Source: an uncultured Gammaproteobacteria bacterium
Lineage (GTDB): Bacteria; Patescibacteriota; Microgenomatia; Woykebacterales; RBG-16-39-9b
Reading direction: 5' to 3'
Assembly (NCBI GenBank): GCA_964367355.1
Contig: CAYIWY010000006.1
Span: forward strand, 15,968 to 79,967
DNA: 64,000 nt
Shown here one piece after another: positions 31,522 through 37,036 of the stretch. The first letter of the stretch is position 1; each line of letters starts with the position of its first letter. The notes beneath the pieces were generated by a model, which saw nothing but the letters and a program-made list of their open reading frames with translations, had not been told where the DNA came from and did not search any database. The translations under genes and the position numbers were made by a program.

Positions 31522-31596
31522 TGGTTGCGGGTGCCGGACTCGAACCGGCTTAAGGAAGATTATGAGCCTTCCGGGATTCCATACCCCCCACCCGCG
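31522..31596 (-). tRNA. Initiator tRNA-fMet(CAU)
   Basis: 5' CGCGGGU and 3' ACCCGCA-A-CCA give the C1xA72 mismatch diagnostic of bacterial initiator tRNA; loop CUCAUAA; T-arm GCCGG-UUCGAGU-CCGGC. Confidence 0.8.
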
Positions 31597-32191: not shown

Positions 32192-32956
32192 ATGCTAGAA
32201 CTAATAAAAAAAACAATCGAGCCCCCTTACAATGCTCGGGATTTATACTCAATTTTTGCTGCATTATTTATTATGTTACTCGTACCGTTAACTGTTCTTG
32301 AGTCTACAAAAGCTCAAGATGACCGTACTTCTGCAGCAACGCTGCCAATACAAAAATTAAACCAAGATATAAATGTCGACATAACCTCACCACGAAATAA
32401 TGATCTTGTAAAAGGCTCTGTTGATGTGTCAGTTGAAGCTAGCAACACAAAGGACAATATTTCTAGTATCAGCCTCTACCTAAACAAAAAACTGCTAGCA
32501 ATTGTGAAAAACCCTTCCCCAACCAATGTTTTTGCAACAAGAGTTACAATTGACACGACAAAAGAAAAAAACGGCATACAATCTTTAATTGCATACGGTT
32601 ACAACAGTGTTGGCGAACAAAATAGATCAAGTAGTGTCTCAATCAATCTTGTGAATTTGGATACTACTTTGCCTTCTGTTAGCTTTAGTAATTTAAAAGA
32701 TGGTGATTATTTAAGTAATACAAGTTTTTTTGTTAAGGTTATTGCTAACGATGAGACTGCAATTTCTTCAATCTCAATTTACTTGGACAAGACACTTTTG
32801 AGACAATTCTCCAAAATTCCTTATGAAACATTTATCGATCTAAGTAAAACTACCCCAGGGAATCATGTACTTAGTGCCAAGGCTATTGACTTTGCTGGTA
32901 ATGAAAGTACCGTTAATGTTGAGTTCTATAAAGGTGTAAAAAAGATTACAAATTAA
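32192..32956 (+). CDS. Hypothetical surface protein with two Ig-like repeats
   Basis: N-terminal TM; internal repeats SSISLYLNKKLL and SSISIYLDKTLL. Confidence 0.5.
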   Translation: MLELIKKTIEPPYNARDLYSIFAALFIMLLVPLTVLESTKAQDDRTSAATLPIQKLNQDINVDITSPRNNDLVKGSVDVSVEASNTKDNISSISLYLNKKLLAIVKNPSPTNVFATRVTIDTTKEKNGIQSLIAYGYNSVGEQNRSSSVSINLVNLDTTLPSVSFSNLKDGDYLSNTSFFVKVIANDETAISSISIYLDKTLLRQFSKIPYETFIDLSKTTPGNHVLSAKAIDFAGNESTVNVEFYKGVKKITN

Positions 32957-33311
32957 TTTTTAGTAACTCTAGCCACTTGGTAAAATTTGATTTTTCTTTT
33001 TGGATTGAACTAGCCTCATTTGAATTAAGATCCCCGTCTTGTAATACAATTATAGTTTCCCCTTGCTTCCCATAACCCAATTTATCCCTTGCTTCCTTTT
33101 CCAAAGAAAACTCTGATTGTTTTAGGCTTACCTTTTGAGTTAGTTCTTGATTTTTTATTTTTAAAGATTTCAAATCATTTTGATTACTATTAATTTCTTT
33201 TAGTTTTTTGTAAGAGTCGTAGCTGCCTCGAGCAAGGTTTGAGATGGTAACTATGAGAATAATTATTACACCAATCGAAAGCAGTTTCCTCATAGTTAAA
33301 TTATACATCAT
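32946..33311 (-). CDS. Septum formation initiator (FtsB/DivIC-like)
   Basis: TM, coiled coil, then EKEARDKLGYGKQGE matching the DivIC/FtsB C-terminal motif. Confidence 0.6.
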   Translation of the reverse strand: MMYNLTMRKLLSIGVIIILIVTISNLARGSYDSYKKLKEINSNQNDLKSLKIKNQELTQKVSLKQSEFSLEKEARDKLGYGKQGETIIVLQDGDLNSNEASSIQKEKSNFTKWLELLKINL

Positions 33312-33416
33312 TCGTCTTTGGCTATTTTTGGGATAATAAGCTAGTTTTTAAACGTCCCATAGTCTCTTGACAGATGTTGAAACTCCTGTTAAACTAAGAA
33401 ATAGTTAAAGCTCACT

Positions 33417-34289
33417 ATGATTAAAATTAAAGATGCCCACTCAAAATTTGTAGATCATCTCAAGTCTCAAGGTCGCTCCAGTGCGACTGTTTTAGCATAT
33501 GGAAAAGATATTGAACAGCTCGCTACCTTTCTTGAAGAACTAAAAAAGAGCCACGTCCACGAAGTTGGTACTAAAGATCTACAAGCTTTTATGGCTAAGT
33601 TGGTTAAAGAAGGCTACACCCCAAAAAGTGTTTCCCGAAAAACAAACTCAACTAAAACTTTTTTCCGGTTTCTAAAGGTTAATGAAATTATCACCGACGA
33701 TCCAGCTACACTTCTTGAACACCCTAAATTTGAGATGAAACCGCCAAGGATTCTTTCCAAGATGGAGTATCGCGCTCTCCGCGACGCTGCAAGAAGTGAT
33801 ACTCGACTCTCAGCAATTATTGAGCTACTTCTGCAAACCGGAATTAGGATCGGTGAGCTGGCTAAGCTAAGACTTCCTGATGTAAAGTTTGGCGAAAACT
33901 CACGGGCCGGAGAACTTCATGTTCCAGCTGGAGAAAGCTACCCAGACAGAAACGTTCCTTTGAATAAAGCCTGTGAGACTTCTTTGAAGAAGTATCTGGA
34001 TATCCGTCCGCAAACTAAAGACGATACTCTTTTTATTACGAAAACTGGCCGTCCGCTACTCGTTAGAAATATCAGAACAGCAATTGACCGTTATTTCCGC
34101 CTCGCCGGAATTAAGGGAGCCAAGGTAAACGACTTGCGCCACACTTTTGTCGCTCATCACTTAATGAGTGGTACGTCTTTGGTATTGGTAAGTAAGCTTG
34201 CCGGTCACAAGCGCTTGGCTACAACTGAAAAGTATCTCAACTTGATTCAAAGCCGGTTGGATGAACCAGTTAAGCTAGAAGAGCTGTAA
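33417..34289 (+). CDS. Tyrosine recombinase (XerC/XerD-like, phage integrase family)
   Basis: C-terminal catalytic residues R...HxxR...Y (LRHTFVAHHLMSG ... TTEKYLNL). Confidence 0.8.
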   Translation: MIKIKDAHSKFVDHLKSQGRSSATVLAYGKDIEQLATFLEELKKSHVHEVGTKDLQAFMAKLVKEGYTPKSVSRKTNSTKTFFRFLKVNEIITDDPATLLEHPKFEMKPPRILSKMEYRALRDAARSDTRLSAIIELLLQTGIRIGELAKLRLPDVKFGENSRAGELHVPAGESYPDRNVPLNKACETSLKKYLDIRPQTKDDTLFITKTGRPLLVRNIRTAIDRYFRLAGIKGAKVNDLRHTFVAHHLMSGTSLVLVSKLAGHKRLATTEKYLNLIQSRLDEPVKLEEL

Positions 34290-35104: not shown

Positions 35105-35506
35105 TTAGTTGTACCCACCAAGATTATCGGTTTTTGCTAAGGCTAAACTTAAGCTACTGATAGTTTTACCGTCAATATTGATATTTATCTGATAATTACC
35201 GGCTTCCGGAAAGGTTGTATTGATTAACTCAATAATGAAGTTAAAATTCTTCTTACCCTCATTTATGGGTAGGTTTACATCTCTTTCCTGTGTCTCTTGT
35301 AGGATCGACCGGCTATTTTTTTCCGAGACAATATCAATTGCTAGTTTAAACTTCTCTTTTGAAGCTGCGACGCTACCAACCAATGTAAATTTCTGATGGC
35401 TAACCGGAAAACTTCCTGCATTTATTGTCTCAAAAACACCAATTATATTGACCTTACGGTCAATTGATAAAAAAGCGCTATCACAGAGTAATGCGTAGAG
35501 TAGTTT
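35105..35506 (-). CDS. Hypothetical protein
   Basis: ORF; likely start MKLLYAL at 35506. Confidence 0.45.
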   Translation of the reverse strand, partial: KLLYALLCDSAFLSIDRKVNIIGVFETINAGSFPVSHQKFTLVGSVAASKEKFKLAIDIVSEKNSRSILQETQERDVNLPINEGKKNFNFIIELINTTFPEAGNYQININIDGKTISSLSLALAKTDNLGGYN

Positions 35507-35517
35507 CATGGTTTTTT

Positions 35518-35556
35518 GTGGACACACTTGGATTTGAACCAAGGACCCCTAATTAG
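35518..35556 (-). pseudogene. 3' half of a tRNA (anticodon-stem 3' strand, T-arm, acceptor 3' strand) with no contiguous 5' half
   Basis: AGGGGTCCTTGGTTCAAATCCAAGTGTGTCCAC; T-arm identical to the adjacent tRNA-Ile; acceptor TGTGTCC complements GGACACA at 35711-35717. Confidence 0.5.
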
Positions 35557-35591
35557 TGAGAACCTACAGTAATCAAGTCAATTAAGACCTT

Positions 35592-35667
35592 TGGTGGGCC
35601 AGCTTGGATTTGAACCAAGGACCCCTACTTTATAAGAGTAGTGCTCTAACCGCTGAGCTACTGGCCC
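35592..35667 (-). tRNA. tRNA-Ile(UAU)
   Basis: Manual fold: acceptor GGGCCAG/CUGGCCC, D-arm GCUC-AGCGGUUA-GAGC, anticodon stem CUACU/AGUAG, loop CUUAUAA (anticodon UAU), T-arm CUUGG-UUCAAAU-CCAAG, discriminator A plus CCA; Ile-type body. Confidence 0.8.
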
Positions 35668-35688
35668 TTTTGCCAGTTCTCAGTAAAA

Positions 35689-35717
35689 TAGTGCTCTAAC
35701 CACTGAGCTATGTGTCC
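35689..35717 (-). pseudogene. 5' half of a tRNA (acceptor 5' strand plus D-arm) with no contiguous 3' half
   Basis: GGACACATAGCTCAGTGGTTAGAGCAC; pairs with the 3' half at 35518-35556. Confidence 0.5.
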
Positions 35718-36058
35718 AAATTAAAGGGATTTTATCACAGTCAGATTTCAAAGTCTCTCAATAAAAGAGGGACTCCACAGTTCGAGGGTTAACCGTGGAG
35801 CTCAATAGAAATGACCAAATTACCCTTTGGAAAGTAGCGTGCCAGATCAATGGTGTGGTCGTTGGTCTAACCCATCTTTCACCACTGCAAGCCCGTTACT
35901 ACCATTTGCCTTTGAAGGTATCCATAGTGGGTCTGGACTAAATTGTCTTTTCTTTTAGCAGAACAACCCTCATTGAAACACCACTTGTTCCGCAAGACAC
36001 TCTCTCCTTTAAGGCTCTGGTTTAATTATTTTAACACTGAGGTCAAACAAACAGACTT

Positions 36059-37036
36059 TTAGTTAGTAAATTCTTGGCAAAACATTTTGCCGTTGATCCC
36101 TCCGTCAATTACCCCTACTCCTAGAGTTCCAAATTCAGCTCGTAAAATATTTTCCCGATGGCCTGGGGAATTCATTAACCCTTGATGAGCTATAGGAACA
36201 CTTGGCGCATAAGCTAGATTCTCTCCAGCCGCTATGTAATCAATCAATGCTTCTTGAATCCTGTCAAAGGGGGACTTTCCCTCTATTGTGTAATGTGAAA
36301 AATAATTACGCTTAAACATATCGCTGCAATGAGCTCGGCCAACAGCGGCAAGAGCATTGCTAAATTTTAATTGGTTCAAACCAGAGGCCTTTCTCTCTTT
36401 GTTGACAAGGTCAAACATTTCTTTTTCTGACCCTGGGTCTTCATTTAAAACAATGTTCTCTGGTAAATTAAGTTCTTGAATATCCTCGCTAACTGAATTG
36501 GTTGGGGTAAGAACATAAACCAAATTTTTGTAAGGAACTCGATTTAAGATTTTCTCTATCCTCTGGATCTGAGAGATACCCCTACTGGCAACATTTTGAC
36601 CCCACCAGGACTCTTGTACTGGCGTACGCAGCCAGGATTTAACCGGTAGCACTAGAACCAACACCATTAGTACTGAGACTAAAAATAGACCGACTAAAAC
36701 TGATGGGATTACTCCAAGATATTTATCCACTTTGGCAATTGTTTTTGATTTTTTATAAAGTGGGGCTATTTTTGAGTAGAGAAAGGTTAATAAAAAGCTG
36801 AGTGTAAATTCCAAAAGAACAAGGCAGATAATAAAGCCAATGATTGGAGATATGTTTTCATTAAAATTAAATTTACTCTCTAAAAATCCCCCTAAATAAG
36901 GATAAAATACAGTGGAAAGTACAAAGGCAGCAATTGTTGCTAGTAAATTTAAAAGTCCGCCAACCAGACCAGTTCGATAGCCTTGCCAAATCAAGTAAGC
37001 AATAAAAACGACAATAAAAACATCAACAAAATTCAT
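36059..37036 (-). CDS. CvpA-family membrane domain fused to an extracytoplasmic CAP (SCP/PR-1) domain
   Basis: N-terminal MNFVDVFIVVFIAYLIWQGYRTG (CvpA-like, 4 TM); C-terminal GHRENIL and HYTQV-like CAP motifs. Confidence 0.7.
   Translation of the reverse strand: MNFVDVFIVVFIAYLIWQGYRTGLVGGLLNLLATIAAFVLSTVFYPYLGGFLESKFNFNENISPIIGFIICLVLLEFTLSFLLTFLYSKIAPLYKKSKTIAKVDKYLGVIPSVLVGLFLVSVLMVLVLVLPVKSWLRTPVQESWWGQNVASRGISQIQRIEKILNRVPYKNLVYVLTPTNSVSEDIQELNLPENIVLNEDPGSEKEMFDLVNKERKASGLNQLKFSNALAAVGRAHCSDMFKRNYFSHYTIEGKSPFDRIQEALIDYIAAGENLAYAPSVPIAHQGLMNSPGHRENILRAEFGTLGVGVIDGGINGKMFCQEFTN

Follow-up and report, generated by a model that had tools for sequence, protein, structure and literature searches.

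Nested tRNA-Ile(UAU) genes in candidate phyla radiation bacteria: probable scars of site-specific insertion of a small tRNA-carrying unit

A tRNA gene nested within a tRNA gene

A stretch of 64,000 nucleotides (nt) from contig CAYIWY010000006.1 (GenBank assembly GCA_964367355.1; Patescibacteriota, Woykebacterales), called the window throughout, carries on its minus strand an intact tRNA-Ile(UAU) gene situated between the 5′ and 3′ halves of a second tRNA-Ile gene. From 35717 to 35519 the order is outer 5′ half, 23 nt, intact gene, trailer and outer 3′ half (Table 1), an arrangement termed a nest here. An intact tRNA-Ile(UAU) between complementary tRNA halves had been described in an original prediction made from the sequence letters, and it is borne out by a second reading of the sequence, ARAGORN, Rfam, a tRNA profile and independent assemblies.

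Table 1. Coordinates of the features of the nest and of the linked recombinase gene in the window
Feature	Position	Strand	Description
Promoter-like extended −10, TGATAAAAT	35729–35737	minus	before outer 5′ half; read from sequence
Outer tRNA-Ile 5′ half	35691–35717	minus	GGACACA-TA-GCTC-AGTGGTTA-GAGC-A-C; acceptor strand, D-arm, positions 26–27
Spacer of 23 nt, TATTTTACTGAGAACTGGCAAAA	35690–35668	minus	between outer 5′ half and inner gene
Decayed outer anticodon stem/loop remnant, TATTTTAC	35683–35690	minus	ends at insertion point
Insert left flank	35668–35682	minus	helix strand TGAGAAC (P1, 5′ side) and 8-nt leader; pairs with 35563–35557
Inner tRNA-Ile(UAU)	35592–35667	minus	intact, encoded CCA, working gene; ARAGORN, Rfam RF00005
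Conserved trailer	35564–35591	minus	after inner gene; hairpin AGGTC-TTAATT-GACTT, then GATTACTGTAG
Insert right flank	35557–35563	minus	helix strand GTTCTCA (P1, 3′ side); pairs with TGAGAAC
Outer tRNA-Ile 3′ half	35519–35556	minus	junction remnant CTA, ATTAG-GGGTC-CTTGG-TTCAAAT-CCAAG-TGTGTCC-A; CCA absent downstream
Xer-like tyrosine recombinase gene	33417–34289	plus	Pfam Phage_integrase and SAM-like N-terminal domain; 1.2 kb from nest

The inner gene is a canonical bacterial tRNA (RF00005, 74.7 bits, E = 1.6e-14, gathering score 29; ARAGORN tRNA-Ile(tat)) and is identical or near-identical to genes in L010, L019, L020, L089 and L093, the L-numbers being the labels of comparison loci and contigs in this analysis. 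A scan against Rfam, using gathering and E-value thresholds, shows tRNA only, with weak YrlA and other matches far below the cutoffs. The outer halves show the same tRNA type. The acceptor strand of the 5′ half, GGACACA, pairs at 7 of 7 positions with TGTGTCC at 35526–35520, the outer D-arm differs from the inner one at 1 of 20 positions, and the variable and T-arm segment is identical to that of the inner gene at 24 of 24; both the acceptor complementarity and the near identity of the arms had been pointed out in the original prediction. With a profile built from the tRNA-Ile(TAT) genes of relatives, nhmmer matches the 5′ half to model positions 1–30 (E = 9e-6) and the 3′ half to positions 31–73 (E = 6e-8). 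The ATTAG of the 3′ half is the 3′ strand of the anticodon stem and is followed by the variable loop, T-arm, acceptor strand and discriminator A.

The insert spans approximately 135 nt, of which 76 are the inner tRNA, and 36 nt separate the inner gene from TAATTAG. A second Ile-like gene interrupted in its anticodon region by an insert of this size with a whole tRNA gene is thus supported, and the predicted pairing of the flanks (UGAGAAC with GUUCUCA) is reproduced by folding. The remnant TATTTTAC appears to be derived from something like TACTCTTA, judging by the inner gene and by clean junctions in relatives, which break after CTTA or after CTTATA.

Contigs assembled independently from other samples (L001, L004, L005, L006) reproduce the arrangement with identical order and spacing, and an assembly artefact is therefore rejected. 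The nest is therefore real and well outside what chance would give. For the species of the window itself, Logan contigs (L002, L003, L007, L008) display breaks within the inner T-arm in two samples, which suggests co-existing locus variants in those communities.

Recurrence in relatives and metagenomes

Loci of relatives were collected through the CvpA-CAP protein encoded beside the nest, from GTDB species representatives and from contigs encoding its closest homologues. The tRNA-Ile(UAU) gene adjoins cvpA, on the downstream side, in 25 relatives, all Candidatus Woykebacteria-like members of the candidate phyla radiation (CPR). At least 13 of these 25 loci show the layout 5′ half, intact gene, 3′ half; one or more flanking tRNA fragments are present in 18 and none in 7. 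The break falls within the anticodon loop in every nested relative. Nests, and not simple tandem tRNA genes, are what the comparison of related genomes proposed in the original prediction brings out; simple tandem genes with a merely decayed duplicate had been named there as the contrary outcome.

Metagenomes of the Joint Genome Institute (JGI) were scanned for two Ile-type D-arms lying nearer to each other than two whole genes allow, with CTTATAA after the second. This gave 75 further stretches. Written with 5 and 3 for the halves and F for a full gene, the layouts include 5F3 (23 stretches), 5F (19) and the multilayer forms 55F3, 5F33 and 5F333, and nests are found up to three layers deep. 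Among 26 non-redundant nests, the outer halves pair at all 7 acceptor positions in 23, against 8% when halves are combined across loci. Beside other tRNAs in the same 1.07 Mb of DNA, fragments of the tRNA's own type are found in 0 of 73 cases. Judged from these comparisons, the process behind the nests is recurrent and serial in CPR bacteria and is confined, within the sampled DNA, to tRNA-Ile(UAU).

A collection of viral contigs was searched for a phage or plasmid carrier. The nested D-arm pattern matched tandem tRNAs only in this collection, and there were 0 matches to the Ile anticodon-arm 28-mer and 0 to the conserved junction hairpin. Three viral contigs (L114, L149, L176) show tandem tRNA-like units seemingly without an anticodon arm, the D-arm passing directly into the T-arm; ARAGORN makes no call on these units.

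Empty and filled sites and successive layers

The locus L011 holds an uninterrupted gene. Its sister locus L012, from a sister species, displays a 163-bp insert within the anticodon loop with a TTATAA direct repeat on either side, and the insert carries a different tRNA-Ile allele, GGATCGG. The tRNA, leader and trailer of L011 align to the outer halves and flanks of L012 at 80 of 104 positions on the left and 94 of 133 on the right in a piecewise alignment, which was used in place of a plain MAFFT alignment that wrongly matched the inner gene to the empty allele. The two loci thus show a tRNA insertion at a fixed sublocation with empty and filled alleles.

The inserts also recur as families in different residents. 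The insert family marked by the left flank TAGCGAACTTTGACAAAGCT occupies four or more different resident alleles, and the GGATCGG insert family, with the conserved end GCAAGATnnwTTCTTGCGAATATAA, five or more. Layers can be followed from one locus to another as well. L015 has an outer gene of the GGGCGCG type and an inner GGGCACA gene; L195 shows the state of L015, with the same junction, and in addition its GGGCACA copy has a GGATCGG gene within the anticodon loop. L260 is likewise the two-layer state of L259 with one additional layer. Therefore each new unit enters the currently active gene, and the previous gene becomes a shell. Damage is greater in the deeper shells and consists of D-arm deletions, stem mismatches, hairpin insertions in the T-loop, or loss of one half; decayed outer copies are found in L009, L018, L020, L021, L093 and L259 and in the outermost layers of L195 and L260.

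As read from these comparisons of sequence, the feature in the window is probably a scar left when a small non-coding unit, carrying its own tRNA-Ile(UAU), was inserted site-specifically at the level of the DNA. A scar of site-specific integration was one of several explanations offered in the original prediction and is the best fit to the L011 and L012 alleles, to the insert families shared by several residents, and to the serial layers.

A local accident within each genome, without a mobile unit, is an unlikely source of the nests, whether by replication slippage, by a template switch at the palindrome of the anticodon arm, or by unequal conversion between tandem gene copies. Such events do leave traces. 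Inner and outer genes are identical in L212, L208, L184, L187 and L219, plain tandem repeats of the 5′ half with its spacer are found in L184, L208 and L222, and gene conversion between layers occurs: L194 and L207 are the same locus in two samples, and part of the relic 3′ half of L207 bears the sequence of the inner gene, which reads as direct evidence of conversion. However, the inner acceptor stem differs from the outer one in 23 of 26 non-redundant nests, the same insert flanks appear in several unrelated resident alleles, and the difference between L011 and L012 is a foreign 163-bp unit. In the window itself the inner gene matches that of L010, L019, L020 and L093, while the outer acceptor resembles the L013/L015 allele. 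A one-off duplication accident, also offered in the original prediction, is contradicted because the nest is widespread and the inner allele usually differs from the outer.

At about 3560–3800 of L222, four tandem 41-nt units, each consisting of a 5′ half and a complete anticodon hairpin, precede a tRNA-Ile(UAU). This array is a slippage-type repeat, unlike the nests.

Junctions, flank helices and hairpins

The insertions are centred on the palindrome TTA/TAA of the anticodon loop, where the slash marks the break between positions 35 and 36. Of the loop sequence CTTATAA, 4+3, 5+4, 6+5 (commonest) or 7+6 nt remain on the 5′ and 3′ sides, respectively, giving duplications of 0, 2, 4 or 6 nt that are symmetric about the break; most junctions duplicate loop bases. 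The inserts are 135–250 bp long, without an open reading frame (ORF), and each contains a whole tRNA. An insert opens with one strand of a helix and closes with the other, and the helix sequence is different in every family. In many inserts there follow GATATAT(C), another hairpin and (C)TATAA, after which the old 3′ half begins, and some inserts end in a terminator-like hairpin (L212). A miniature inverted-repeat transposable element (MITE) or other transposon was rejected as the source, since the flank helices differ among families and the duplication of 0, 2, 4 or 6 nt is not fixed.

A leader-trailer helix is found in every unit, with a mean duplex energy of −28.9 kcal/mol against −21.2 kcal/mol for shuffled sequences. 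The duplex statistic is only moderate (median z = −1.8) because long sequences offer the shuffles many options; folds of single loci are clearer. The helix uses G-U pairs and also exists in un-nested units.

These features bear on a route through RNA, in which a cut tRNA-Ile, cleaved for example by an anticodon nuclease, would be re-ligated around a whole pre-tRNA whose ends are held by the leader-trailer helix, then copied into DNA and recombined into the gene. Insert ends that form the two strands of a G-U-containing helix present in un-nested units as well, the terminator-like hairpin closing some inserts, the insert class without duplication and a target consisting of a single phosphodiester in the anticodon loop would all suit such a route. 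However, no reverse transcriptase gene is found among the neighbours checked, the symmetric duplications of 2, 4 and 6 nt and the hairpin arrays with palindromic cores look DNA-level, and the independent events seem too many for a route of several steps. RNA ligation followed by reverse transcription is thus quite improbable and less likely than DNA-level routes.

Arrays of hairpins are present in L216 (2050–2895), L219 (300–1250) and L221 (1–700), with the cores GATATATC, GCTATAG(C) and CTATAA between the hairpins. The arrays occupy the space between tRNA layers; in L221 they are found upstream of the 5′ half as well. Within 500 nt of these tRNA-Ile genes GATATATC shows an 11-fold enrichment, and its copies elsewhere are without flanking hairpins. 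A dispersed hairpin family of the repetitive extragenic palindromic (REP) or MITE type was considered for these arrays and rejected, the core motif being confined to these loci. GC-rich hairpins (for example CCTGCCCGCC...GGCAGGCGGGG) are also found in the T-loop of relic 3′ halves in L186, L260, L195 and L205. Their likeness to the flank helices (CCCGCCTGCC/GGCGGGCAGG) in one class of inserts suggests from the sequence that a hairpin unit may enter tRNA loops.

The trailer that follows the inner gene is present in most Woykebacteria-type loci, with the changes in its hairpin stem occurring in pairs. It consists, in the window and in L009–L021, L089, L093 and L094, of a small hairpin followed by GAT(T/C)Annn. 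In 18 of 27 units the trailer then repeats positions 40–43 of the anticodon stem of its own tRNA, compared with 10% when pairs are mismatched; GTAG is found there in both the window and L094 (stem AGTAG).

State of the outer copy

The flank-helix family of the window, CTGAGAAC/GTTCTCAG, is also found in L089, L257, L259 and L260 and, more distantly, in L020 and L256; homologues of the left flank are present in L089, L257, L259, L260 and L020. The 3′ junction in the window reads CTAATTAG, and the second junction hairpin of L020 and L256 is deleted. The outer anticodon region is mutated, with CACTATTTTAC where the inner gene reads CACTACTCTTA. What is left of the loop is TTAC...CTA, the stem has a U-U mismatch, and no CCA follows the outer discriminator, whereas the other tRNAs of the window encode CCA. 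Because the anticodon stem-loop is mutated and CCA is lost, the outer gene cannot decode. By its sequence, the outer copy in the window is dead as a tRNA, a decaying relic.

The outer D- and T-arms probably stay similar to the inner ones by gene conversion of the kind seen between L194 and L207. Stem positions 28 and 42 are T and A in both copies of the window and C and G in both copies of L089.

An outer tRNA that is still used, either because the insert is a tRNA-delivering intron or because the halves stay paired as a split tRNA or tRNA-like RNA, is highly improbable. Several observations would fit it. With the inner tRNA taken out, the halves co-fold to a cloverleaf with one long irregular arm (−41 kcal/mol), and the window retains intact every nucleotide of the acceptor, D-arm and T-arm. 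The acceptor stem is the same in L089 and shows compensated pair changes in L259, and some inserts split CTTA/TAA without duplication, as an intron would. Group I introns are found at position 35/36 in tRNA-Asn as well as tRNA-Asp in Patescibacteria (PMC13011429), and a review, as represented in a paper citing it, is said to list small structured introns in CPR tRNA genes.

Other observations speak against it. The original prediction had described a plausible anticodon stem (CUAUU/AUUAG) extended by the pairing of the flanks; in the window the stem carries the mismatch and the anticodon loop is gone. No RF00028 match to a group I intron is obtained at E up to 1 in 35450–36120, and the insert of 135 nt compares with more than 200 nt for a typical group I intron. 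The junction forms a 4×3 or mismatched internal loop and not a bulge-helix-bulge, which speaks against spliced or split tRNAs of the archaeal type. Protein-based tRNA splicing is not known from bacteria. Splicing does not explain the loop-base duplications at most junctions, and the outer copies are decayed, truncated or mismatched in most relatives. A canonical or intron-containing outer tRNA was also sought with ARAGORN, allowing introns of up to 300 nt at lowered thresholds; the outer gene is not called, the only call is a spurious one on the opposite strand, and the loop bases left on removal of the insert are TTAC...CTA, where a normal 7-nt loop would be expected. A permuted tRNA is ruled out by the order 5′ half, insert, 3′ half. 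The intron-like or permuted arrangement that the original prediction had listed is thus not upheld.

Neighbouring genes and the linked recombinase

The genes around the nest are bacterial and include FtsH, a CNNM/CBS transporter, PrsW, a CvpA-CAP fusion, a ZIP transporter and a tyrosine recombinase. Among named proteins, the nearest homologues of CvpA-CAP come from Candidatus Woykebacteria and other Patescibacteria, and the CvpA and DUF6941 neighbours are restricted to the Woykebacteria-like group. The gene order tRNA-Ile(UAU), Xer-like recombinase, DivIC (32946–34289 in the window; L189–L256) is kept across CPR lineages, although the recombinases sharing it are only 45–60% identical.

The tyrosine recombinase gene had been noted at 1.2 kb from the nest in the original prediction, and both its position and its family are confirmed (Table 1). 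Against NCBIfam models the protein scores approximately 160 bits for XerC, XerD and XerA, below the cutoffs, and 72 bits for integron integrase, where the cutoff is 265. In 27 of the 75 metagenome loci a homologue (45–84% identity) is encoded no more than 3 kb from the nest, sometimes at 50–120 nt. It is the neighbour most often common to lineages; the next is DivIC (13 loci). Over most of the window the GC skew has a single sign, without a switch at 35.5 kb. The tRNA as a chromosomal dif site is not supported by this skew.

A 340-nt non-coding block (35718–36058, minus strand), extending from cvpA to the nest, is 95% identical to L257, where the adjacent cvpA is 70% identical. It holds a promoter-like TGTTAAAAT and a terminator-like hairpin (35801–35772). 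The block shows no Rfam match and no convincing ORF, its fold z-score is only −1.1, and L089 and L093 are without it. Two readings are offered for it: a gene for a small RNA, or a block that has recently been exchanged.

At 31522–31596 on the minus strand ARAGORN calls a second tRNA-Met(CAT), which lies below the Rfam gathering score. It displays a C1-A72 mismatch, as in initiator tRNA, and an odd D-arm, GGGGGGTATGGAATCCCGG.

Proposed mechanism and its weighing

The comparison with relatives shows that a unit of about 135 bp, consisting of a leader, tRNA-Ile(UAU) with CCA, a trailer and two pairing flanks, landed at TTA/TAA of the resident tRNA-Ile(UAU); the rest of the mechanism can be proposed. 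The target is probably the sole decoder of AUA, and so only inserts bringing a working copy would survive. The inner gene would then have taken over, being transcribed from the promoter of the old gene within a structured precursor closed by the leader-trailer helix and the old acceptor stem, from which RNase P and 3′ processing would release the inner tRNA. Each new insert hits the active gene and older copies become the outer shells, while hairpins without a tRNA would pile up at dead junctions.

Use of the old promoter is suggested because the 23 nt before the inner gene are too short to hold a promoter of its own. The extended −10 element upstream of the outer 5′ half, TGATAAAAT, is by its sequence the likely start of a transcript spanning the whole nest. 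Relatives show TGnTATAAT at the equivalent place before the outermost 5′ half; a consensus promoter scan made no call at TGATAAAAT, where there is no good −35.

As to the agent, the linked Xer-like tyrosine recombinase may be suggested tentatively, by analogy with integron or CTX-phage integration, as acting on folded hairpin sites. An alternative DNA-level route would be homing-like repair copied from a nested allele.

Several points weigh against site-specific insertion of a mobile unit, or against the recombinase as its agent. A duplication varying from 0 to 6 nt is not obviously the product of a single transposase or recombinase, and the insert ends are not conserved in sequence and do not resemble the anticodon arm, as the attP core of a classical system resembles attB. 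The metagenome set favours young nests, as the scan pattern needs an intact outer D-arm. The recombinase is of a generic Xer type, lies beside the cell-division gene DivIC and looks like a housekeeping enzyme; it also adjoins un-nested loci, and some nests with more than 3 kb of flanking sequence are without it. The linkage may therefore be merely an old gene order, and the enzyme is a candidate and not a proven insertion agent.

The outer acceptor is a further point on this side. It is unchanged between the window and L089 despite diverged junction sequences, in L259 it differs from both by two compensated pairs, and acceptor strands are not convertible from the inner gene. This hints at residual constraint, and the outer helix may be useful in the precursor. 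The argument is weak because the block moves between lineages, as the 340 nt shared with L257 at 95% beside a cvpA at 70% indicate; recent exchange of the block between lineages, or independent insertions, may account for the acceptor pattern as well. The conserved outer halves of the window and L089 were considered as proof of selection, which is weakened by the block identity with L257 and by gene conversion between layers.

It is conceivable, if doubtful, that CPR bacteria own an integron-like cassette system that targets an essential gene. The TTATAA loop of tRNA-Ile(UAU) would be the attachment site, at which a host Xer-like recombinase would insert promoter-less, hairpin-ended cassettes carrying a replacement tRNA by way of folded DNA. 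The active gene would then be swapped repeatedly between lineages. The cassettes could be nothing more than selfish, "addictive" DNA; alternatively, the exchange could serve to evade nucleases that attack tRNA-Ile(UAU).

Significance

Searches of the literature found no description of a tRNA gene nested within a tRNA gene. Insertion into tRNA genes is classic; what is new here would be a miniature non-coding insert that brings a complete substitute for the gene it destroys, time after time, resulting in concentric shells. The replacement of tRNA-Ile(UAU), layer after layer and at this one target, by tiny inserts with a tRNA of their own appears to be a new variant of tRNA-targeted integration. 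If this is true, a selfish or exchangeable unit has here a new means of making itself unlosable, since its loss kills the only AUA decoder, and the successive replacement of tRNA alleles and their horizontal exchange can be read from the nests, as from fossils, in unculturable organisms. Split and intron-bearing tRNAs of Archaea have been proposed to stem from mobile elements, and the nests would be a parallel to this in bacteria, at the level of the DNA. For annotators it would be a warning against taking tRNA halves in CPR genomes as a matter of course for introns or split genes; tRNA fragments derived from integration are already described as misleading annotation (PMC9897764). Should the linked Xer-like enzyme be the agent, a structure-guided recombination system of practical interest would be at hand.

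Comparison with known systems

Integrative elements, such as prophages and genomic islands, are said, by Reiter in 1989 and Williams in 2002, to target tRNA genes by means of tyrosine integrases, one class reportedly crossing over in the anticodon loop. The nests are similar in that the target is the symmetric anticodon stem-loop of a tRNA gene, the function of the gene is kept, leftover tRNA fragments mark old events, and a tyrosine recombinase gene is nearby. However, integrative elements are kilobases long, encode their own integrase, carry only the 3′ part of the tRNA and leave a single displaced 3′ fragment. The units of the nests are 135–250 bp and non-coding, bring a complete replacement gene, leave both halves and are stacked concentrically. 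A classical integrative element was rejected for the window, where the insert is without an integrase ORF, carries a whole tRNA and not an attP-type 3′ part, and has the recombinase outside of it, among genes of the chromosome.

Archaeal tRNA genes may be intron-containing, split or permuted, and a model proposes that mobile elements created these forms (PMC3293823; PMC3218864; PMC4390854). Like the nests they are broken at the anticodon region, the flanks pair the halves, and fragments result from the integration of mobile elements. In Archaea a splicing endonuclease and a ligase rebuild the tRNA, whereas the nests are bacterial and lack a bulge-helix-bulge, the outer gene decays, and the interrupting DNA is a copy of the same tRNA. 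The group I introns of Patescibacteria share the phylum, a tRNA host gene and the same 35/36 position with the nests. The nests differ from them in having no ribozyme, an insert that is too small, a tRNA within it, and duplicated loop bases at most junctions.

Integrative mobile elements exploiting Xer (IMEX), such as CTX phage, which enters dif as a folded single strand, would be comparable in that a non-autonomous element would make use of a housekeeping Xer and would have a folded hairpin site with an AT-rich centre. Unlike IMEX, the nest has no switch of GC skew at the locus, and so no obvious terminus, and no phage or plasmid carrier was found in the viral contigs.

Integron cassettes show both differences and likenesses. 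The window recombinase is Xer-like, falls far below the integron-integrase model and is not always adjacent to a nest; the cores are TATA/TTATAA and not GTTRRRY, the units nest within each other in place of lying side by side, and the cargo is always the same tRNA. An integron proper was rejected on the integrase score, and integron attC sites were rejected because the hairpins are present with TATA-type cores (GATATATC, GCTATAG, TATAA) and not with GTTRRRY/RYYYAAC. As with integron cassettes, one site receives small units without promoters one after another, a resident promoter drives their expression, the end hairpin is variable in sequence and constant in shape, core repeats lie at the boundaries, the inverse core (here TATA) starts the hairpin, and "empty" hairpin units form arrays (L216, L219, L221). 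The layout of a nest, consisting of core repeat, cargo, inverse core, variable hairpin and core repeat, resembles that of an integron array with a different core.

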